Assembly: GCA_964016885.1 (NCBI GenBank)
Contig: OZ024740.1
Location: forward strand, 301,940,001 to 302,004,000
Source of the DNA: Eledone cirrhosa
Lineage: Eukaryota
Reading direction: 5' to 3'
DNA: 64,000 nucleotides
Made by a program: the position numbers and the translations under genes
Shown: in pieces, positions 10,890 through 58,670 of the stretch
Position numbering within the stretch: position 1 is the stretch's first letter
Layout: each line of letters starts with the position of its first letter
The notes under the pieces: generated by a model
What the model was told of the DNA's origin: nothing
Databases searched by the model: none
Seen by the model: only the letters and a program-made list of their open reading frames with translations

Positions 10890-11550
10890 GGATTGATGGA
10901 AACTAAACCTCGATGAATGTTTTATTTTGTGGATGAAAGTCTTGATGAAATAAGGAATTTTCAAACCCTCATGACACACAAAATGCTATAAACTCTAAAG
11001 CCCAATTCACTATGGAATTTAGCAAAGCAATACTCTCTTCCTTAGACATAATATTAACAAAAAGAACCACAAATCTAGATATTGACATATTTTTCAAATC
11101 CAGCGACTCCCGTCAGAATCTCACTTTCCCATCTGCTCATTCAACTCAAACACGCACCCACATTCCACTTAACCTAGATAAGCTGATCTACACAATAGCT
11201 TCAAAAGCAACAAGAGACCACCGACTAGTGACGATGAAAAATATACACATCAAGCAAAATTACCCACTAAATCTAATGAAAGACACCACTCAAAAACTCA
11301 AAAAAATAATATTCAACTTCATCTCCTCCGAGAACCCCACCCCGCAAAAAGAAGTCATGCCATGTATCTTAACCTTCAAACCCCAAAACATCAATACCTC
11401 TACCCTTATACAACTAAAACTACGTATACTACAAAAAAGATTTTTTAAATGAATCTCTTACAGAAATATTCTATTATTAAAACTAAATAACAGCCGAAAT
11501 CATTAAAAAGTATTAAGATGGGCAGAGCTGCGAACCACAATTACAGAACC
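10890..11550 (+). mobile_element. Decayed Penelope-like element RT/thumb fragment (Neptune-like)
   Basis: 'LDECFILW' (~10908-10932; YxDD-like motif), then 'QFTMEF..LSSLDI..DIFFKSSDSRQNLTFPSAH..HIPLNL..QNYP', typical PLE RT C-terminal and thumb motifs. Confidence 0.8.
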
Positions 11551-11781
11551 TCATGTGAAAAGATGCGACATGTCACTTCTATGGGTCAACACACTCCTCA
11601 TTGACCTCCTCTTATTTCAATCTTTTCTATATTTCATCTGCCTTTCACCCATCTTGTGTATTTCTCACTGTCCAGCACTGGCCGCTGTTCTACGTCCTCT
11701 GAGGCACTGTTGCCCATTACTTTCCTTCCTTGAGTGTAAATAGTTGTTTTAACGGCTGTTATAGTGATTAGGTTTCTCATT

Positions 11782-29190: not shown

Positions 29191-29194
<4 letters not shown>

Positions 29195-29413
29195 AGAAAG
29201 TATGACACCGACGGCAGAGCTCAAGCCGTTCCGACGGCTATTTCTGGACTAAAGTGTAATTAGAAAGATTCATTTTAGTCCAGAAATAGCCGTCGAAACG
29301 GCTTGAGCTCTGCCGTCGGGGTCATACTTTCTCCTATTGCCACTCTACTACCCTAAGTATTGAGTACTCTGGTGCGTTATGGTCCATCTGGTTCCTTACC
29401 ACAACTCCTTCGT
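29191..29413 (+). mobile_element. Family B fold-back PLE-like fragment
   Basis: Palindrome 29191-29336 plus tail. GAAA-CGGC uugagcucu GCCG-UC forms stem III and a GUC site. Confidence 0.75.
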
Positions 29414-29428
29414 TATATATATATATAT

Positions 29429-29930
29429 AAATTGGAATAAATGCTCTGAAATAGCGATATATATGTGAATATAGACATAGAATATTCGAAAATATTCTGT
29501 ATGTTTATAATAAACATTTTGAAGACCTAATCGCTATAGAATAGAATACGTCACGTATTACAATTAGATTCTCGATAAAAGCAAGGGAAGTAATCTACGC
29601 GTTTCATTCTCGTTAGAAATCATCAGGACTACATATCCAGTGCTTTTATCGAGAATGACACAGCTAGAGACTTATAGAATACTTAGCTGTGTACAGGAAC
29701 TGGTTTGAAAGAGCGGTTGCCGGTCCGGCAGAAATTAGAAATTGGAATAAATGCTCTGAAATAGCGATATATATGTGAATATAGACATAGAATATTCGAA
29801 AATATTCTGTATGTTTATAATAAACATTTTGAAGACCTAATCGCTATAGAATAGAATACGTCACGTATTACAATTAGATTCTCGATAAAAGCAAGGGAAG
29901 TAATCTACGCGTTTCATTCTCGTTAGAAAT
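29429..29930 (-). repeat. Inverted ~1.6 copies of the 310-bp hammerhead unit; one complete HHR at 29568-29656
   Basis: Reverse complement of the array unit, joined head-to-head with the plus array at 29930/29931. Confidence 0.95.
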
Positions 29931-32900
29931 CTGTGTCATTCTCGATAAAAGCACTGGATATGTAGTCCTGATGATTTCTAACGAGAATGAAACGCGTAGA
30001 TTACTTCCCTTGCTTTTATCGAGAATCTAATTGTAATACGTGACGTATTCTATTCTATAGCGATTAGGTCTTCAAAATGTTTATTATAAACATACAGAAT
30101 ATTTTCGAATATTCTATGTCTATATTCACATATATATCGCTATTTCAGAGCATTTATTCCAATTTCTAATTTCTGCCGGACCGGCAACCGCTCTTTCAAA
30201 CCAGTTCCTGTACACAGCTAAGTATTCTATAAGTCTCTAGCTGTGTCATTCTCGATAAAAGCACTGGATATGTAGTCCTGATGATTTCTAACGAGAATGA
30301 AACGCGTAGATTACTTCCCTTGCTTTTATCGAGAATCTAATTGTAATACGTGACGTATTCTATTCTATAGCGATTAGGTCTTCAAAATGTTTATTATAAA
30401 CATACAGAATATTTTCGAATATTCTATGTCTATATTCACATATATATCGCTATTTCAGAGCATTTATTCCAATTTCTAATTTCTGCCGGACCGGCAACCG
30501 CTCTTTCAAACCAGTTCCTGTACACAGCTAAGTATTCTATAAGTCTCTAGCTGTGTCATTCTCGATAAAAGCACTGGATATGTAGTCCTGATGATTTCTA
30601 ACGAGAATGAAACGCGTAGATTACTTCCCTTGCTTTTATCGAGAATCTAATTGTAATACGTGACGTATTCTATTCTATAGCGATTAGGTCTTCAAAATGT
30701 TTATTATAAACATACAGAATATTTTCGAATATTCTATGTCTATATTCACATATATATCGCTATTTCAGAGCATTTATTCCAATTTCTAATTTCTGCCGGA
30801 CCGGCAACCGCTCTTTCAAACCAGTTCCTGTACACAGCTAAGTATTCTATAAGTCTCTAGCTGTGTCATTCTCGATAAAAGCACTGGATATGTAGTCCTG
30901 ATGATTTCTAACGAGAATGAAACGCGTAGATTACTTCCCTTGCTTTTATCGAGAATCTAATTGTAATACGTGACGTATTCTATTCTATAGCGATTAGGTC
31001 TTCAAAATGTTTATTATAAACATACAGAATATTTTCGAATATTCTATGTCTATATTCACATATATATCGCTATTTCAGAGCATTTATTCCAATTTCTAAT
31101 TTCTGCCGGACCGGCAACCGCTCTTTCAAACCAGTTCCTGTACACAGCTAAGTATTCTATAAGTCTCTAGCTGTGTCATTCTCGATAAAAGCACTGGATA
31201 TGTAGTCCTGATGATTTCTAACGAGAATGAAACGCGTAGATTACTTCCCTTGCTTTTATCGAGAATCTAATTGTAATACGTGACGTATTCTATTCTATAG
31301 CGATTAGGTCTTCAAAATGTTTATTATAAACATACAGAATATTTTCGAATATTCTATGTCTATATTCACATATATATCGCTATTTCAGAGCATTTATTCC
31401 AATTTCTAATTTCTGCCGGACCGGCAACCGCTCTTTCAAACCAGTTCCTGTACACAGCTAAGTATTCTATAAGTCTCTAGCTGTGTCATTCTCGATAAAA
31501 GCACTGGATATGTAGTCCTGATGATTTCTAACGAGAATGAAACGCGTAGATTACTTCCCTTGCTTTTATCGAGAATCTAATTGTAATACGTGACGTATTC
31601 TATTCTATAGCGATTAGGTCTTCAAAATGTTTATTATAAACATACAGAATATTTTCGAATATTCTATGTCTATATTCACATATATATCGCTATTTCAGAG
31701 CATTTATTCCAATTTCTAATTTCTGCCGGACCGGCAACCGCTCTTTCAAACCAGTTCCTGTACACAGCTAAGTATTCTATAAGTCTCTAGCTGTGTCATT
31801 CTCGATAAAAGCACTGGATATGTAGTCCTGATGATTTCTAACGAGAATGAAACGCGTAGATTACTTCCCTTGCTTTTATCGAGAATCTAATTGTAATACG
31901 TGACGTATTCTATTCTATAGCGATTAGGTCTTCAAAATGTTTATTATAAACATACAGAATATTTTCGAATATTCTATGTCTATATTCACATATATATCGC
32001 TATTTCAGAGCATTTATTCCAATTTCTAATTTCTGCCGGACCGGCAACCGCTCTTTCAAACCAGTTCCTGTACACAGCTAAGTATTCTATAAGTCTCTAG
32101 CTGTGTCATTCTCGATAAAAGCACTGGATATGTAGTCCTGATGATTTCTAACGAGAATGAAACGCGTAGATTACTTCCCTTGCTTTTATCGAGAATCTAA
32201 TTGTAATACGTGACGTATTCTATTCTATAGCGATTAGGTCTTCAAAATGTTTATTATAAACATACAGAATATTTTCGAATATTCTATGTCTATATTCACA
32301 TATATATCGCTATTTCAGAGCATTTATTCCAATTTCTAATTTCTGCCGGACCGGCAACCGCTCTTTCAAACCAGTTCCTGTACACAGCTAAGTATTCTAT
32401 AAGTCTCTAGCTGTGTCATTCTCGATAAAAGCACTGGATATGTAGTCCTGATGATTTCTAACGAGAATGAAACGCGTAGATTACTTCCCTTGCTTTTATC
32501 GAGAATCTAATTGTAATACGTGACGTATTCTATTCTATAGCGATTAGGTCTTCAAAATGTTTATTATAAACATACAGAATATTTTCGAATATTCTATGTC
32601 TATATTCACATATATATCGCTATTTCAGAGCATTTATTCCAATTTCTAATTTCTGCCGGACCGGCAACCGCTCTTTCAAACCAGTTCCTGTACACAGCTA
32701 AGTATTCTATAAGTCTCTAGCTGTGTCATTCTCGATAAAAGCACTGGATATGTAGTCCTGATGATTTCTAACGAGAATGAAACGCGTAGATTACTTCCCT
32801 TGCTTTTATCGAGAATCTAATTGTAATACGTGACGTATTCTATTCTATAGCGATTAGGTCTTCAAAATGTTTACTATAAACATACAGAATATTTTCGAAT

Positions 32901-35900
32901 ATTCTATGTCTATATTCACATATATATCGCTATTTCAGAGCATTTATTCCAATTTCTAATTTCTGCCGGACCGGCAACCGCTCTTTCAAACCAGTTCCTG
33001 TACACAGCTAAGTATTCTATAAGTCTCTAGCTGTGTCATTCTCGATAAAAGCACTGGATATGTAGTCCTGATGATTTCTAACGAGAATGAAACGCGTAGA
33101 TTACTTCCCTTGCTTTTATCGAGAATCTAATTGTAATACGTGACGTATTCTATTCTATAGCGATTAGGTCTTCAAAATGTTTATTATAAACATACAGAAT
33201 ATTTTCGAATATTCTATGTCTATATTCACATATATATCGCTATTTCAGAGCATTTATTCCAATTTCTAATTTCTGCCGGACCGGCAACCGCTCTTTCAAA
33301 CCAGTTCCTGTACACAGCTAAGTATTCTATAAGTCTCTAGCTGTGTCATTCTCGATAAAAGCACTGGATATGTAGTCCTGATGATTTCTAACGAGAATGA
33401 AACGCGTAGATTACTTCCCTTGCTTTTATCGAGAATCTAATTGTAATACGTGACGTATTCTATTCTATAGCGATTAGGTCTTCAAAATGTTTATTATAAA
33501 CATACAGAATATTTTCGAATATTCTATGTCTATATTCACATATATATCGCTATTTCAGAGCATTTATTCCAATTTCTAATTTCTGCCGGACCGGCAACCG
33601 CTCTTTCAAACCAGTTCCTGTACACAGCTAAGTATTCTATAAGTCTCTAGCTGTGTCATTCTCGATAAAAGCACTGGATATGTAGTCCTGATGATTTCTA
33701 ACGAGAATGAAACGCGTAGATTACTTCCCTTGCTTTTATCGAGAATCTAATTGTAATACGTGACGTATTCTATTCTATAGCGATTAGGTCTTCAAAATGT
33801 TTATTATAAACATACAGAATATTTTCGAATATTCTATGTCTATATTCACATATATATCGCTATTTCAGAGCATTTATTCCAATTTCTAATTTCTGCCGGA
33901 CCGGCAACCGCTCTTTCAAACCAGTTCCTGTACACAGCTAAGTATTCTATAAGTCTCTAGCTGTGTCATTCTCGATAAAAGCACTGGATATGTAGTCCTG
34001 ATGATTTCTAACGAGAATGAAACGCGTAGATTACTTCCCTTGCTTTTATCGAGAATCTAATTGTAATACGTGACGTATTCTATTCTATAGCGATTAGGTC
34101 TTCAAAATGTTTATTATAAACATACAGAATATTTTCGAATATTCTATGTCTATATTCACATATATATCGCTATTTCAGAGCATTTATTCCAATTTCTAAT
34201 TTCTGCCGGACCGGCAACCGCTCTTTCAAACCAGTTCCTGTACACAGCTAAGTATTCTATAAGTCTCTAGCTGTGTCATTCTCGATAAAAGCACTGGATA
34301 TGTAGTCCTGATGATTTCTAACGAGAATGAAACGCGTAGATTACTTCCCTTGCTTTTATCGAGAATCTAATTGTAATACGTGACGTATTCTATTCTATAG
34401 CGATTAGGTCTTCAAAATGTTTATTATAAACATACAGAATATTTTCGAATATTCTATGTCTATATTCACATATATATCGCTATTTCAGAGCATTTATTCC
34501 AATTTCTAATTTCTGCCGGACCGGCAACCGCTCTTTCAAACCAGTTCCTGTACACAGCTAAGTATTCTATAAGTCTCTAGCTGTGTCATTCTCGATAAAA
34601 GCACTGGATATGTAGTCCTGATGATTTCTAACGAGAATGAAACGCGTAGATTACTTCCCTTGCTTTTATCGAGAATCTAATTGTAATACGTGACGTATTC
34701 TATTCTATAGCGATTAGGTCTTCAAAATGTTTATTATAAACATACAGAATATTTTCGAATATTCTATGTCTATATTCACATATATATCGCTATTTCAGAG
34801 CATTTATTCCAATTTCTAATTTCTGCCGGACCGGCAACCGCTCTTTCAAACCAGTTCCTGTACACAGCTAAGTATTCTATAAGTCTCTAGCTGTGTCATT
34901 CTCGATAAAAGCACTGGATATGTAGTCCTGATGATTTCTAACGAGAATGAAACGCGTAGATTACTTCCCTTGCTTTTATCGAGAATCTAATTGTAATACG
35001 TGACGTATTCTATTCTATAGCGATTAGGTCTTCAAAATGTTTATTATAAACATACAGAATATTTTCGAATATTCTATGTCTATATTCACATATATATCGC
35101 TATTTCAGAGCATTTATTCCAATTTCTAATTTCTGCCGGACCGGCAACCGCTCTTTCAAACCAGTTCCTGTACACAGCTAAGTATTCTATAAGTCTCTAG
35201 CTGTGTCATTCTCGATAAAAGCACTGGATATGTAGTCCTGATGATTTCTAACGAGAATGAAACGCGTAGATTACTTCCCTTGCTTTTATCGAGAATCTAA
35301 TTGTAATACGTGACGTATTCTATTCTATAGCGATTAGGTCTTCAAAATGTTTACTATAAACATACAGAATATTTTCGAATATTCTATGTCTATATTCACA
35401 TATATATCGCTATTTCAGAGCATTTATTCCAATTTCTAATTTCTGCCGGACCGGCAACCGCTCTTTCAAACCAGTTCCTGTACACAGCTAAGTATTCTAT
35501 AAGTCTCTAGCTGTGTCATTCTCGATAAAAGCACTGGATATGTAGTCCTGATGATTTCTAACGAGAATGAAACGCGTAGATTACTTCCCTTGCTTTTATC
35601 GAGAATCTAATTGTAATACGTGACGTATTCTATTCTATAGCGATTAGGTCTTCAAAATGTTTATTATAAACATACAGAATATTTTCGAATATTCTATGTC
35701 TATATTCACATATATATCGCTATTTCAGAGCATTTATTCCAATTTCTAATTTCTGCCGGACCGGCAACCGCTCTTTCAAACCAGTTCCTGTACACAGCTA
35801 AGTATTCTATAAGTCTCTAGCTGTGTCATTCTCGATAAAAGCACTGGATATGTAGTCCTGATGATTTCTAACGAGAATGAAACGCGTAGATTACTTCCCT

Positions 35901-36638
35901 TGCTTTTATCGAGAATCTAATTGTAATACGTGACGTATTCTATTCTATAGCGATTAGGTCTTCAAAATGTTTATTATAAACATACAGAATATTTTCGAAT
36001 ATTCTATGTCTATATTCACATATATATCGCTATTTCAGAGCATTTATTCCAATTTCTAATTTCTGCCGGACCGGCAACCGCTCTTTCAAACCAGTTCCTG
36101 TACACAGCTAAGTATTCTATAAGTCTCTAGCTGTGTCATTCTCGATAAAAGCACTGGATATGTAGTCCTGATGATTTCTAACGAGAATGAAACGCGTAGA
36201 TTACTTCCCTTGCTTTTATCGAGAATCTAATTGTAATACGTGACGTATTCTATTCTATAGCGATTAGGTCTTCAAAATGTTTATTATAAACATACAGAAT
36301 ATTTTCGAATATTCTATGTCTATATTCACATATATATCGCTATTTCAGAGCATTTATTCCAATTTCTAATTTCTGCCGGACCGGCAACCGCTCTTTCAAA
36401 CCAGTTCCTGTACACAGCTAAGTATTCTATAAGTCTCTAGCTGTGTCATTCTCGATAAAAGCACTGGATATGTAGTCCTGATGATTTCTAACGAGAATGA
36501 AACGCGTAGATTACTTCCCTTGCTTTTATCGAGAATCTAATTGTAATACGTGACGTATTCTATTCTATAGCGATTAGGTCTTCAAAATGTTTATTATAAA
36601 CATACAGAATATTTTCGAATATTCTATGTCTATATTCA
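29931..36638 (+). repeat. 310-bp tandem array, 21 full + 1 partial units, each with a type I hammerhead (retrozyme-like)
   Basis: The unit start CTGTGTCATT recurs every 310 bp from 29931 to 36441. The only variants I saw are T>C at 32874 and 35354. Confidence 0.97.
29938..30026 (+). ncRNA. Type I hammerhead ribozyme of the first array unit, repeated 22 times at +310 intervals
   Basis: Outer stem AUUCUCGAUAAAAGCA/UGCUUUUAUCGAGAAU (16 bp); inner stem I GUAGUC/GAUUAC; CUGAUGA at 29968-29974; stem II UUCU-AACG-AGAA; GAAA at 29989-29992; stem III palindrome ACGCGU; predicted cleavage after GUA at 29998. Confidence 0.9.
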
Positions 36639-36728
36639 TATATATATATATATATATAAGCAAAAGGTAAAAACTTGAACTGTTAAGATCTTCCTGGTTA
36701 TGTAAATATTTATAAAACAAACTTTGTA

Positions 36729-37974: not shown

Positions 37975-38616
37975 AGTTTTAAATATAAAAGAGCTTCTAC
38001 GGGACTGGAACTGTTTCATTCGTGAGAAATCATCAGGAAGCTGGCTGTCCAAGTAAATGGTAGTATTTATATCTTTCCTTATCTGGTGGTAGAAGAGGGT
38101 GGGGATTGGGATGGGTGGAGGTCATTGGTTGATGGATTTAAAGAAAAGGGAGTTCATTAAAAGCTAATTCTTAAAAGCTGTAATATTAACAAAAGCAGAA
38201 AGAATACTGTAAAAATTGGAATACCTATCCATGTTTATCACTTAGACTAACAATGCCTGTAAGACAGGTGTCTACAGGATGGGTGGGGTTCAATGGTTTA
38301 AAGAAAAGGGAAATCCTTTAGTCTAAGTGATAAACAAGGATTGGTATTCCAATTTTGAATTTGTTTACAGTATTCTTTCTGCCTTTGTTAATATTATAGC
38401 TTTTAATGAACTCTCTTTTCTTTAGATCCTTCTACCAATTACCTACGGCCATCCCAATCTCCACCCTCTCCTACCACCTGATAAAGAAAGATATAACTAC
38501 TACCATTTATTTGGACAGCCAGCTTCCTGATGATTTCTCACGAATGAAACAGTTCTAGTCTGCTATGTATTGAGTACCTTACTAACTGTGGTTACCTCCG
38601 ATTCAACCTGAAATAA

Positions 38617-50884: not shown

Positions 50885-53800
50885 ATCTAAGGCGGGTAAA
50901 ATTCCCGACATCCATGGACGAGTTCTCTCCAGCGGTCTCTGTCCCTCATTATCGCTGCCATGTCCTGCATTTCCAACAGACCAGTGTCTGTCCTTAGGGC
51001 ATCAACATACGTTAACCTTGGTCTTTTTCTTCTAGTGTGTCCATGTAGGGGTTCCCAAAGGAGTACTGAGTGCAATGTCAACTCTGCATGTCGGTGAGCA
51101 TCTCCAGCTAACCTCAGTCTCCTCTGTGTCACTTTTGAGCTGACTTTTGGGATGCTCCCATACAGCTCTGAGTTTTTCATCCTCAGTGTATAATGATTAA
51201 TGTTAAGAGCCATCCTCAGCATTCTCGTGTAGCACCCATCCACCATCTGAGTGAGTTTCTTGGTCAGTGTCCAAGTCTCAGACCCATACAGCAGCACAGA
51301 CTCCACTACAGCAATGAAGAGGCGGATTTTCAGGTCTCTACGAAGGTCCGACTTCCACACCGATCTCAAACTGTGGCATGCCGCCCAGGCCTTGCTCTTC
51401 CGCTCAACCACATCATCTTCCGTATTCCCAATCTTTGCTCCCAAATACAGGAAGTCCTCAACCAATTCCAGCGGCTTCCCGCCTACATTAGTGATCCCCT
51501 CTGGCCTCTCAACATTCTCTACCAGATATTTTGTTTTAGTCTCATTCATTCTCAGCCCCACACTCATCGACACAGTCTCAACCTCCCGCATCAAATCCTG
51601 TGCCTCCTTCATTGTATTTGTCCCAAAACTATGTCGTCGGCAAACTCAGCATCCTATACCTTTTTCGCCCTAACTCTCCTGCTCTGAGCCGGTGCTATAG
51701 TAAAGCCAGAGTCCTGGTGTTTCTCCAGTGCAAGGCGCATACAATAGTCCACTACGATGATAAAAAGGTAGGGAGCCAATGTATCTCCCTGGAGCACTCC
51801 AGCCAGTATCTCAAAGAACTCTGTCATCCCATCAGGTGTAATGACTTGGGCTTTGGTGTTGGTGTAGAGCAGTGATATCAGGTCCACTATCTTCTTGGGG
51901 ATTCCATAAGCCTGTAAGATCTTCATCAGGCAGTAACGGTCCACAGAATCAAAGGCCTTCCTAAAGTCAATGAAAACCATGACCGCAGGAAGGCACTTTG
52001 CTCTAGCTCCCTCTAATATCCTCCTCAGCATCAGGATGTGACTGGTGGTTGATCTACCCTCTCTGAAGCCGTTCTGGTTGTCCCTGAGCTTCTTCTCCAT
52101 CTTAGGCTGGATCCTGTTAAGAATCATCCTGTTGGGGGTCTTTGCCACAAGTGACGTCAGTGAGATCCCCCGGTAGTTGTTGGTGTCAGAGAGATCTCCC
52201 TTCTTTGGCAATGGGACAATGTTACTGATCCTCCACTAATTCGGGGCAACTCCTTTCTCCAGTGCCCCGTTACAGAACCCCAGGATGATATCATCAAAAT
52301 CACACCTCTTAATCACCTCTGATGCCACTCCATCTTCTCCATGAGCCTTGCCCTCGTTGATCCTCTTCTTGGCTCTCTGAAGCTCCTCTCTGGTGAAGGG
52401 CTCTGTCTCAACATCCAGTTCCTCAAACAGCCGCCTGATCTCCCCAGTGCTCTGGGCTGTGGAGGGTGGCTCTCCTAGTAGGGTCCTAAAATGCTCTAGC
52501 CATTTCCTCTTCCTATCCTCGGGCCCCGTTCCCTGGATCTGACTCGAACACCTTCTCTTTCTGCCTGTGATCTCGTTGATGATCATCCAGCTCTCCTTAC
52601 ATCCAGATCTGTCCACCGCTCTCTCCACACTTCTGATCTTCTATATCAGTGCCTCCTCTCTGACCTCAGTGTAAGTGGTACAGAGCTCTTCCCTCATCAC
52701 CTCCACAGTCTCCACCCTCTCCTCCGTAGGATCAGCATAGAATTGGTCCTTGGCAGCTTTCAGGTGTTCTCTGGCTGCACACACTTTTGGGTTTGCAGAG
52801 CTGACGTGCTTCCCTTTATTCTTTTTCCTCGGCACCTGGGTTTCACTTGCTTCCGCCACTGCATTGGCGAAGTGCCCGTACCTCCTCGTCACACTCTCCT
52901 CAGTCCATCCGATCTCTCTCTCCTCTGACTCTCCACACAGAGCACTAAACCTGTTTCTCACTTCCACTGTGAACCTCTCCTGTAGCTTATCATCTTCCTT
53001 GAAAGCTCCCCAGTCATAGATTGTTCTCCGGGGCTGAGCCTTGTTCTTTCTTAAGCTCACGCGGACCTCACTCATAACAAGCCGGTGGTCACTACCCAGT
53101 GTACTGAAATAGCTGTATGGTTCCGTGTTCAGAACACTATTCCGCCACTTTTTCCTCACCAGAATGAAATAAATCTGGGACTTGGACAGGTGCATATCTG
53201 AGATGTTGGTCCACATCTTCCCCAGATTCTTCCTAAACCTTAGGTTGGTCGCCATCAAGTTCGCCTCCAGCAGGGTGTCTCTCAGTAGTCTTCCATTTCG
53301 GTTGGTGTTGTTATGGAAGTACCAGCAAGTATCTTCACTGCCCTCCTTACTCAGATGTGCATTGAAGTCCCCCAAAACAAGCAGGATATTGTGTGCCTGA
53401 GTGGTGTTGACAGCTCTACACACCTCCTCATGGAACACTTCCGCATTCACATCGCTGTCCCCCTCGGTTGGACTATAGGCTGAGATGACTGTCAGTCTTG
53501 GGTTTCCATTGAAGGTCACCCTCAACACTCGCGGGGAGATAGGCATTATTTCCCTCACCAACAGATTGGTTTTTGCACTGAACACAAAACCCACTCCTCC
53601 TACTGCAGCATTTGTTGTGTTCTTCACTGCTGATGTAGTGATGAGCTGGCTCTTCTTCCCAATCATCACACTCCTCACGTGCTCATCGTGTAGAATCCTG
53701 TGTTCTTGGATCACAAGTATCTGTATACCACTCTCCTCGAACAGATGTCCTAACTCCTCTCTCTTCTCCAGCGTCCGAATAGTCCTCACATTCAAAGTGC

Positions 53801-54190
53801 CCATTTTGATGGCTCTTCTGCAGGACAAAACTGCATTCTTTATATTTGTTTCAGAGACAGCTGATCCATCATCCACTGGCCCTCTCTGTGGCTCTAAGCC
53901 AGCAGAGTCATAACGACCAGGCTGCTCCTTGACAGTGTCATTAGGGGCTCTAACCCTAGTGCTGTTAGATCGACTCTCCATATTTCTTTTCAATGGCTGA
54001 CAATACCTTACCGGCGCCACTCGAATAAGGTAGTTATTTAACCCATAAACGGAGCCCTAACAGGTACTACCACCCCGGGCCAGGGCAGACCTGGGAGTCA
54101 TGACAACTAAGGCGTAACTCCACATTCCCCACATCTCCTGAACTCCCGAACTGGAGCCTTGCCACTGGATGTAGTTTAATGTCATACCCA
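50882..54190 (-). mobile_element. Near full-length RTE-clade LINE (APE + RT), inactivated
   Basis: ORF pieces 52641-54020 (TLNVRT, IQEH, AYSPT, GDFN, SDH), 52236-52628, 51654-52211 (NYRGISL, QNGFR, FIDFRKAFDSV, GVLQGDTLAP), FADD ~51633-51644, and 50887-51612. Three in-frame stops plus one frameshift. (TA)n flanks. Confidence 0.95.
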
Positions 54191-55175: not shown

Positions 55176-55365
55176 AATGAAAAGATTCAACCCCGACAGC
55201 TGAGCTCTGGCAGATTCGACAGCTAGTTACGAACAGTTCGTATCTAGCTGTAAAAACGGCCGGAGCTCAGTCGTCGGGAGTCCTGAATCTTTTCATATTA
55301 CCCACTCTACTACCCAAAGTATCGAGTACTCTGGTGGGCCCACCTGGTATTTTACCACATTTTTC

Positions 55366-55367
<2 letters not shown>
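55176..55367 (+). mobile_element. Family B fold-back fragment, diverged
   Basis: Imperfect palindrome 55176-55296 plus the TTACCCACTCTACTACCC tail. Confidence 0.65.
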
Positions 55368-55427
<60 letters not shown>

Positions 55428-55503
55428 CAACAAAATTAAAGATGTCTGAGAAAATACGAAACAAACATGCATACACACACACATACACATATATATATAT
55501 ATA

Positions 55504-58500
55504 TCTTAGTCTTAGTCTTAGTATTAGTTCCTCCAGTGCCTTGTGGAACATTGGGCGACGAGCTCCTCCACTTGATCCTGTCACTGGCGGCCCTTCTTTC
55601 ACCTCTCCAGGTAATTCCCATCTCCTGCAGGTCCTCCCTGAATGTGCTCCGCCATGTTTTTCGTGGTCTTCCCCGTTCTCTCCTGCCACCTTCTGGTACC
55701 CAATCCATGGCAATATGAGCAGGTCGATCTGCCGGCAAACGAAGGATGTGGCCGCGAATCGCCGTCTCCTTTTCTGGACAATGTCCCTTAACCTCTCCAA
55801 TCCTGACCTCCTCATCACTTCCTCGTTGCTAACTTGGTCTCTCCATGACATTTTCAATAAGGTCCGAATGCAACGACGGTGGAATACATCAAGCTTGTTA
55901 CACACACTTTCCGTACTCTTCCATGTCTCACAGGCATATATCGATGTTGGTACTACAATGAACATGTAAACACGGAATTTGACGGCGTTGCCGATGGAAC
56001 ACCTGGACCATACCGGACGGAGTCGCTGGAAGACCGCCACTGCTTTTCCCAGCCTTGTGCGCACATTTACCTCAACATCCCCATCGTCAGAGATGTTGCT
56101 GCCAAAGTATTGGAAGTGGTTTACACATTCAATGTTACGCTGACCAACCATGATGGGAGGATTTGGAGGGTCACCTGTCGACATGGTCTAGGTTTTTTCA
56201 CAACTGATGCGCAGGCCAACTTTCTCTGCATTGTTATTTAGAACGTTTGTCATCTCTTGCAGGTCTTCTCGGGAATGGCCTATCACTGCGATGTCATCGG
56301 CAAAGTCCACGTCGCTTAATGTCCTTCCATCCCAACTGATGCCAAAACGAGGGTCACTCATTGTCTTCTTCATGATGAAATCGATGACAATGAGGAAAAG
56401 GAAAGGCGAAAGGATGCAGCCTTGTCGAACACCCGTCAAGGTGTCAAACATTTCCGTGTTTCCGTCCTTTGTCCTAACGCAGCACCTGGAATGTCGGTAC
56501 AGCGACCTGAAGATGTTAATATATTTCTCTGGGACACCATAGAGTCTTACAATCTTCCACAATGACACCCGATGAACACTGTCGAAAGCTTTCCTGAAGT
56601 CAATGTAGTTGACAACAAGGGACTTGTGGAACTCCCGACATTTTTCAATGATATTTCGGAGAGTGAAGATCTGCTCTGAACAAGACCTTCCACTACGGAA
56701 GCCAGCCTGTTTATCTCGAAGATGACGATCTACTTCTGCTCTCAGCCGGTTCAGGATGACTGTGCAGAATACCTTCCCTGGCACTGATAGCAACGTGATC
56801 CCTCTCCAGTTGTTACAGTCGCTGAGACAGCTCTTCTTCGGTAGTGGTACAATCACTCCATGTCCCCAGTCCTCCGGCACCGCCTCTTCTTGCCAAATCA
56901 CATTGTATAAATGAGTGAGATGCTCTTCTATTACATCCTTGCCGTGCTTCAGAAGCTCTGCAGGAATCTCATCCAGCCCTGCCGCTTTGTTATTCTTTTG
57001 GCAGCGGATGGCCTTGGCCACCTCAGCTCTTGTGATGTCGTCTAGTCGTACATCCAGCCGGTAGCTCGATTCCTCCCAGTCAAGCTCGAAGACTGTGATG
57101 GGGGATGGCTGATTGAGGACCTCACGAAAGTGTTCTTTCCACCTTTGGGCCTGCTCTTCACTGGCTGCAAGCATCCGACCTTCTTTGCTCTTGATTGGCA
57201 AACTACTTCCACTTCGTCCTCCAGTTAACTCTCTGACGATCCGGTACAGCGTCTTGTAATCATTTCGATCTGCTGCCACCTGTGCCTCTGCAGCCCCATC
57301 TTCTAACTACTGGCGCTTGTCTTTTCGACAGCTCTTCTTTACTTCCTTGTCAAGCCGTCTGTACGCTTTGTCCACTTCCTTCCATTGCTGTCGAGTTTTG
57401 GTTTGATCTCTTTTGTTCTTAACATCCTTCCTCTCGTCAATAAGATTCCATGAAGTACTGCTGATCCATTGTTCCCGGTTGGTCCCTTTTCTTCTACCAA
57501 TAACTACATCAGCACGCACCCTGACCGCCTGAGCAAACATCTTCCAATGGTCTTCACGGTTCTGTGCGTGCTGTAGTTCTTGGAACTTATTCCTGATCTC
57601 CAGGTAGAATCTCTCTGACGTGCCTTGGTCTTGCAGGCTTGCGACAGCAGATGGCCTCACGGTCTTATTTGCTTTGTTCTTCTTCAACCTCAAGCGGATT
57701 TTTCCAACCACAAGATGATGGTCAGATCCGACGTCTGCCCCTCGGTAGGGGCGAACATCCAAGAGAGAGGAATGCCACCTCGTGTCAATGCAGATATAAT
57801 CAATCTCATTCCTGGTGTTGCCATCAGGGGAAGTCCATGTCATCTTGTGAATCCGTCTATGGGTGAAGAATGTATTCCTGTGGAGAGGTTGCTGATACTG
57901 CTCAGGGACAGCAACCATTCCCCGTTGTTATTGGTGGAATCATCTGAACTGTGGGGGCCAATGGCTGAATGCATGTCTCTCCTGTCTCCATCTAGCTTGG
58001 CATTAAAGTCACCAATCACCAGCCTAATGTCTGACCTGGTTGTTTCCTATAGGACATCCTGTAGTTGGATAAAGAAGGAACGTTATCTTCATCTCAGGCA
58101 ACTTCAGTCGGGGCGTAGACTTGCAATACGGTCACCTTGGCTAACCTTGTGCTCAATCTGGCAGTAATAATTCGTTCAATCACTGGCCTCCATCCCACAA
58201 GAGCCCGTGATACATCTCCGGTGAGGATGATACTAACTCCGTGGACATGGTGGTCATCATCACCGGCGTAGAGAATAGTCATGTCTCCACTGTCGAGTCG
58301 TCCCCGTCCTGTCCACCTCGTCTCGCTGAAGCCCATGATGTCAAGGCGATATTCCCTCATCTCTTTCAGCACCTGCTCCATCCGCCCGTCTTGAAAGAGC
58401 GTGCGGACATTCCAGGTGCCTACTCTCGTATTTGACTTGGCGTTGAAGATAGGACTTATCCGCGGTCGGGCCTCCTTTCGGCTTTGACCCGGCCCCATCA

Positions 58501-58670
58501 TAGGCGCATCCAGGGATGACCTGTCTTCTCTTTTCCGCCGCTGGGTATCAAAATGGTTTTTTCTCGTCGTTTCTGTAGCGGTAAAAATGTTTTACGGGGG
58601 CAGGACTGCTAACACCACGCCCCAACCCTCCTCCTTTCTCAACCGGGCTTGGGACCGGCTAGGGCGAAGT
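55504..58670 (-). mobile_element. Full-length RTE-clade LINE (APE + RT), inactivated, with (ACTAAG)n tail
   Basis: ORF pieces 58094-58501 (TWNVRT, SETRW, VYAPT), 57307-57918 (IDYI, GSDHH), 56188-57279 (NWRGITLL, QAGFR, IDFRKAFDSV, GVRQGCILSP, FADD) and 55267-56184. Tail TCTTAG x3-4 on plus at 55504-55528. (TA)n flanks. Confidence 0.95.
58620..58670 (-). ncRNA. Twister ribozyme (P1-type) 3' cleavage-product portion at the RTE 5' end
   Basis: Minus strand: A-CUUC-GCC-CUA-GCCG-GUCCC-AAGC-CCGG-uugagaaa-GGAG-GAGGG-UUGGGG. It matches the twister core GCCGGUCCCAAGCCCGG...GAGGG, with P2 CUUC/GGAG, P4 CCG/CGG and pseudoknots CCC/GGG and GC/GC. Confidence 0.85.

Follow-up and report, generated by a model that had tools for sequence, protein, structure and literature searches.

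The stretch of DNA analysed here, called the window, is 64,000 nt long. All coordinates refer to this whole window, and position 1 of the monomer is window position 29999. The window contains a tandem array with two arms of opposite orientation, which lie between (TA)n tracts and meet with an overlap of 1 nt. The features are as follows.

29414..29428, no strand: left (TA)n flank, putative target
29429..29931, minus: inverted arm, 1.6 units, ends at monomer position 167
29931..36638, plus: plus arm, 21.6 units with 2 mismatches in total, ends at monomer position 130
29999..30308, plus: retrozyme monomer, 310 nt, GC 0.34-0.35, from one predicted cleavage site to the next
30011-30026 with 30248-30263, plus: 16-bp distal stem I, clamping the remainder of the monomer
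30035-30049, plus: AAUACG hairpin
30057-30064 / 30136-30143, plus: AUAGCGAU / AUCGCUAU helix, pair probability ~0.6
30077-30093, plus: near-palindrome hairpin, pair probability ~0.4
30096-30115, plus: AGAAUAUU hairpin
30129..30165, plus: 'tail', monomer ~131-167, between two recurrent insertion ends
30174-30186, plus: UGCCG hairpin
30212 / 30238, spanning 30212-30246, plus: ACACAGCUA / UAGCUGUGU hairpin
30272..30314, plus: type I hammerhead, motif read off the sequence
30272-30277 and 30309-30314, plus: 5' and 3' strands of hammerhead stem I
30278-30284, plus: CUGAUGA of the hammerhead
30285-30298, plus: hammerhead stem II, with U.U at its base
30299-30302, plus: GAAA of the hammerhead
30302-30307, plus: hammerhead stem III, palindromic ACGCGU
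After A30308, plus: predicted cut following GUA, equal to the monomer start (29998/29999 equivalent)
36639..36658, no strand: right (TA)n flank, putative target

The hammerhead core was repeated at a spacing of 310 nt at 22 positions of the plus arm, and a hammerhead was present in every tandem unit of the array. The array had no open reading frame of at least 150 aa, the RT + GIY-YIG frame of an autonomous Penelope-like element (PLE) was absent from it and no LTR arrangement was seen, the arms terminating directly in (TA)n. A bacterial promoter scan gave nothing above shuffles, and its bacterial model is irrelevant to this host. The monomer is almost certainly the unit of a young non-LTR retrozyme, a known class, and its RNA is predicted to cleave itself and to circularise. 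Pattern searches of the 3.0-Gb genome returned 4,262 exact and 16,981 degenerate matches to the core. This puts about 17,000 units at about 1,900 loci, the latter number being an estimate from the share of short insertion ends that face long ends (61/100, see below).

In the circular ensemble, hammerhead stem I was paired with a probability of 0.86-1.0 and stem II with ~0.15. Stem III was unstable in the monomer, where its folding costs energy, and a self-duplex of the ACGCGU palindrome had −7.5 kcal/mol. Given the costly stem III and the stable self-duplex, these calculations make it likely that the hammerheads would cleave in pairs, as dimers held by the palindrome. For axolotl hammerhead motifs of similar shape, pairwise cleavage is reported in the available part of PMC7229834.

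The animal non-LTR retrozymes described in the accessible sections of PMC7229834 and 10.64898/2026.07.22.740005, and newt satellite 2, likewise have tandem units (150-450 bp) of less than 50% GC, a type I hammerhead per unit, a predicted self-paired circle and dispersed multicopy arrays. Two axolotl families also share the palindromic one-pair stem III and the U.U at the base of stem II (PMC7229834, same sections). The sequence differs, and expression and cleavage were shown there, whereas they are predicted here. In a related survey, cleavage failed in 8 of the 9 retrozyme dimers that were assayed, according to its available text (10.64898/2026.07.22.740005).

In the sequencing runs X1 and X2 the monomer was assembled as a single contig of 340 nt (310 + 30). 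Such a contig is expected from tandem DNA as much as from a circle and therefore allows no inference on expression. X1 and X2 covered only the high-copy repeats of the window, and X3 covered unique DNA at ~11x. The runs X1-X6 contained a near-identical monomer under four organism labels, and three of the four runs that were mapped represented high-copy repeats only. No run recorded as RNA was among those listed with the monomer.

Fold of the monomer and selection on its helices

The original prediction had described the monomer as an almost continuous chain of hairpins, and all motifs that it named were found at their positions. Folded as a circle, the monomer reached −67.8 kcal/mol against −48.8 ± 5.0 kcal/mol for dinucleotide shuffles (z −3.8), and none of 300 shuffles was as stable. 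Linear folding gave −72.5 vs −53.1 kcal/mol (z −3.9, 1 of 100 shuffles as good), and the part enclosed by stem I alone (monomer 29-249) had a z of −2.4, with 4 of 300 shuffles as good. Pair probabilities were mostly above 0.8 in five of the seven named helices, the weaker two being the AUAGCGAU helix and the near-palindrome. By the circular z-score the hairpins are real, but 'almost continuous' was an overstatement, as the paired fraction was 0.60 compared with 0.56 ± 0.04 in shuffles. The near-palindrome had been drawn with a 1-nt loop, which is impossible; 7 bp with a 3-nt loop can form at the probability listed above. The 16-bp helix is present, starting 12 nt inward of the monomer's 5' end and stopping 45 nt short of its 3' end, but the joining of the cleaved ends that had been ascribed to it would be done by the hammerhead fold instead.

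Folding of this kind is nothing unusual in a retrozyme. Taken by itself, the energy says little, since the paired fraction is like that of shuffles, the minus strand folds better than the plus strand (z −4.8) and z ≤ −4 was also reached by 5 of 19 background windows of uninspected content (25 shuffles each). That these windows fold equally well by z-score would agree with chance hairpins in an ordinary AT-rich satellite or in a fold-back created by the assembly. The same can be said of Rfam, which had 0 matches at the curated threshold and, at E ≤ 10, a weak HH9 hammerhead match (15.8 bits, E 0.8) besides miRNA-like matches produced by the inversion of the array. Such an origin is hardly credible in view of the full hammerhead, the selection on helices and the covariation described below, and the asymmetric ends, which are found at over 1,100 sites and again in a sister family that has diverged. 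That the array is not ordinary satellite DNA, as had been proposed, also follows from the arrays being dispersed, short and fixed at their ends. The term 'viroid-like' fits the shape, and the element resembles hammerhead viroids and satellite RNAs in size, branched fold and hammerhead. It is, however, encoded in the genome (~17,000 DNA copies), has a complete hammerhead on one strand only and belongs to the described class of non-LTR retrozymes. From retrozyme biology and the anatomy of the arrays we infer that the monomer would circularise.

Variants were sampled from 56 loci with at least two full units, among which 26 haplotypes were found. Variants fixed in an array were regarded as propagated and variants in single units as of later origin or as errors, and 3 fixed and 11 singleton indels were left out. 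None of the 24 distinct fixed substitutions broke a firm helix or the core, whereas 20 of the 45 single-unit substitutions did (p 4e-5), in a test that was not blind because the helix list had been drawn up after the variants had been seen. With the two weak helices included, 1/24 fixed and 23/45 single-unit variants were disruptive. The hairpin region alone gave 0/13 vs 13/38 (p 0.02), and the ribozyme together with stem I gave 0/11 vs 7/7. This shows that the monomer structure is under selection during propagation, and the purifying selection on the helices bears out what had been predicted for the fold.

Compensatory changes had been named as a further check of the fold, and they were found in a sister family B and in a third lineage. 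Family B has a unit of 314 nt that is 65% identical to the 310-nt family, with 94% identity among its own copies, and one copy folded independently into the same layout (z −5.8). Its pairs were mapped from conserved anchors because an alignment by sequence only mis-registers stem I between the families. Among the 61 pairs mapped, 37 were unchanged, 11 had two-sided and 4 one-sided changes, and 9 were broken; 82% of the cells pair, compared with 39-47% for a slid control. Where both sides were altered, 11 of 13 pairs still pair (p 6e-4), and when all altered pairs were pooled, 15 of 24 were kept, which is not significant against 0.5 (p 0.15). The 16-bp distal stem I had four of the two-sided changes. 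Five of the nine broken pairs lie in the AAUACG hairpin; its equivalent in family B is placed 5 nt away, has a new sequence and, in 8 of 10 copies, forms 6 pairs closed by a 3-nt loop. In place of the ACACAGCUA hairpin, family B has a shorter one. In the third, older lineage the AGAAUAUU hairpin is retained with other pairs, with 8/8 pairs formed in at least one copy and six distinct loci represented. Since the covariation comes from two or three lineages, each change counts as one event.

The older sister families B (L182-L211) and C (L236, L243, L250, L252, L253) have the 59-165 region and the insertion ends in common. A 17-mer of the 59-165 region had 24,721 matches in the genome.

Anatomy of the insertions

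At 10 of 11 unselected loci, the one in the window included, the insertion consists of two arrays in divergent orientation within (TA)n. All ten two-armed loci had one end at monomer position 128-139 and the other at 163-170, and in eight of them the arms were joined by an overlap of 1-4 nt. The 71 fetched loci, 60 of which had been picked through an end pattern and 11 unselected by ends, comprised 56 with outward arms, 13 with a single orientation, 2 complex ones and none that were simply inward. Genome-wide, 1,164 short-end and 1,166 long-end junctions with TA were counted. Of the first 100 short ends, 61 faced a long end within 20 kb, one faced another short end, and long-long combinations did not occur. 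When 20 'unpaired' short ends were fetched, a second end was present in 12 and was a long end each time (12/12). The ends of family B lie at homologous sites, with a long and a short end in 12 of 30 loci and two alike in none, where the query favoured long ends. The borders of the tail are the putative start sites of reverse transcription. As both flanks are (TA)n, a target-site duplication is indistinguishable.

The 112 inner ends were spread over the monomer with a mild enrichment in its first half (KS p 0.04). None of them was at the cut site (position 1), and the arms run through many cut sites. We also considered that monomers or short insertions came first and that the arrays then grew by unequal crossing-over and were homogenised by conversion. 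A satellite route by crossing-over is proposed for vertebrate retrozymes in the available text of 10.64898/2026.07.22.740005, and paired variants at fixed spacing, 7 units apart in L119 and in units 9 and 17 of the window array, suggest some later duplication. As the origin of the arrays this route is improbable, because the two inverted arms each contain multiple units and have private variants in common, the outer ends are fixed while the inner junctions vary, and many arrays have 0-2 mismatches across thousands of bases.

Penelope-like elements as candidate partners

According to the available text of 10.1101/2021.04.23.441226, PMC8557442 and PMC3846280, PLE insertions have an inverted truncated copy, a tail of 30-40 bp on one end and a bias for (TA)n. 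The retrozyme insertions show an inverted truncated copy, a one-end tail of ~35 nt and a (TA)n target. In the accessible part of PMC11167929, the purified Anolis PLE protein is described as cutting both strands of the DNA and extending them, with reverse transcription beginning at two positions inside the RNA that delimit the tail. Mobilisation of the 310-nt retrozyme by a PLE-type activity is very probable. The endonuclease-positive PLEs (Penelope/Poseidon, Neptune, Nematis, Naiad), as far as the cited texts were available, share with it the inverted 5'-truncated copy, the 30-40 bp tail and the AT-rich or (TA)n targets; the canonical clades carry a hammerhead in the pseudo-LTR, and Naiads are without one. 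The retrozyme differs from PLEs in having no protein and in its arms, each of which can comprise more than 20 identical units.

The genome contains a young PLE family (L062-L071) with intact RT + GIY-YIG frames of 775 aa and a CX4CXXC linker, and a homologue search with this protein gave 767 relatives. The family has inverted ends in (TA)n and a tail of ~66 nt, compared with ~35 nt in the retrozyme. In its pseudo-LTR a hammerhead is predicted whose core is a U3/A8 variant and whose stem III is palindromic.

A sequence match to the monomer of the kind expected from a partner was not found in 79 PLE-bearing loci (10 of the 775-aa family, 49 with RT or GIY-YIG and 20 with long frames), which are a small sample of the more than 10,000 GIY-YIG candidates in the genome. 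The matches in these loci were low-complexity ones, nearby retrozyme copies and one related hammerhead. The partner search at 21 of 30 loci with the conserved 17-mer in other contexts gave no partner either. A short motif common to the end of the 775-aa family and the retrozyme tail was set aside, as its placement relative to the ends is different. The non-autonomous Chlamys PLEs (MRC1; PMC8557442, available part) are likewise multicopy and mobilised by PLEs. They resemble the 3' end of their partner and are mostly without a hammerhead, whereas the retrozyme has a hammerhead under selection and no partner match was found.

Retrozyme arrays in (TA)n tracts directly adjoined PLE ends at L045, L070 and L035, which is consistent with a shared target. 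The window itself contains a decayed PLE fragment at 10897-11665, with 32% to the 775-aa protein. An unrelated 465-nt repeat at L062:6988-8487 has its own type I hammerhead and lies back-to-back in (TA)n; at this one locus its ends differ by ~70 nt, which is near the tail length (~66 nt) of the young PLE family beside it. Immediately to the left of the array, at 29193-29412, another inverted element lies between two (TA)n tracts, with one arm longer by ~75 nt, and run X3 reached a very high depth there. The window also has two LINE-like elements, both interrupted and both matching endonuclease and RT, at 50887-54056 and 55267-58591 on the minus strand.

Short hammerhead elements with the stem II type of the retrozyme are found at 508-590, 37990-38060 (minus strand) and 38510-38560 of the window. 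Their family had 1,494 exact matches in the genome, often as two hammerheads back-to-back at 35-50 bp, and a PLE protein match within 1.5 kb was found in 0 of 20 loci. Window 30224-30273 (monomer 226-275) aligned weakly to an inverted hammerhead of L222:4716-4789 (74% over 80 nt including the core). By this alignment, stem I may be derived from an inverted junction of the short hammerhead family.

Template of the inserted copies

In 37 of 39 two-armed loci both arms carried one haplotype (chance 0.12), which favours the reverse transcription of a circular monomer from two ends. At seven loci both arms shared variants that were absent from all other sampled loci. Clean single-unit variants were mirrored on the other arm once, in L086, and unmirrored 28 times, in 39.8 kb copied by both arms at 38 loci; L097, L110 and L128 were set aside from this count as haplotype effects. 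These data are best matched by a bottleneck of one monomer that is then copied repeatedly, as a circle would provide. We lean towards circular RNA as the template.

The same element and PLE enzyme could instead have used an uncleaved linear or multimeric transcript of a homogeneous array, with circles as a by-product or absent. In vitro, the Anolis PLE worked mainly on uncleaved RNA and could dispense with its own hammerhead, as stated in the available part of PMC11167929. Many arrays are also nearly homogeneous and so able to transmit one haplotype, and the mirrored variant suggests a multimeric template in L086. A linear template alone, however, leaves unexplained why new variants have reached fixation throughout both arms (26 haplotypes among 56 loci, with private variants on both arms at 7), why ribozyme and stem I variants are filtered out (0/11 vs 7/7 disruptive) and why 28 of 29 clean single-unit variants are unmirrored. 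We regard it as unlikely.

L097 and L110 are haplotype mosaics, and with the paired variants of L119 they indicate that template switching or later duplication also occurs. A 7-mer circle was ruled out for L119, where one of three doublets is off period. Classical twin priming on one linear RNA was ruled out as well, as the inner junctions are not beside the opposite outer end.

In the proposed mechanism the 310-nt arrays would be transcribed, the hammerheads would cut the transcripts, probably in pairs through the ACGCGU palindrome, and a host ligase would close the monomer into a circle. The PLE protein would nick both strands of a (TA)n tract and prime two cDNAs at two internal sites of the circle ~35 nt apart. 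Each cDNA would run several times round the circle, and the two cDNA ends would be joined by microhomology. The hairpins would serve as a scaffold of the ribozyme and, around 59-165, as the region for protein binding and initiation. That a self-cleaving, circularising retrozyme RNA is recopied into (TA)n by a PLE reverse transcriptase/endonuclease is a reading we consider likely. Whether the ~1,900 young insertions are, in full, a record of two-ended rolling-circle retrotransposition by a Penelope-type enzyme on one circular ribozyme RNA is evenly balanced in our judgement.

The class of non-LTR retrozymes is already known, and a link to PLEs was proposed before. This link was argued from co-occurrence and sequence likeness, with the mechanism left open, in the accessible part of 10.64898/2026.07.22.740005, and a 2020 review, in its available text, has no motif pointing to a mobilising partner of retrozymes. 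For inverted arms, tails and (TA)n targeting no description in retrozymes came to light in the abstracts and the main texts of retrozyme papers covered by our searches, and an earlier description of the insertion footprint may exist.

In the literature available to us, the mobilising enzyme of animal retrozymes and the role of circles as template are stated as open questions. The retrozyme family described here bears the insertion signature of PLEs at more than 1,100 counted sites and supplies exact predicted start positions and a minimal RNA, so that the question of mobilisation can be put to the test in the in vitro PLE system that already exists. The value of the finding rests on the insertion footprint and not on the folding, and the contrast between fixed and singleton variants shows that the fold was selected during propagation. 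If true, the two-ended rolling-circle reading would be direct genomic evidence for the movement of animal retrozymes, and the start sites of the enzyme and a conserved structured recognition region (~59-165) would be mapped on a 310-nt substrate.
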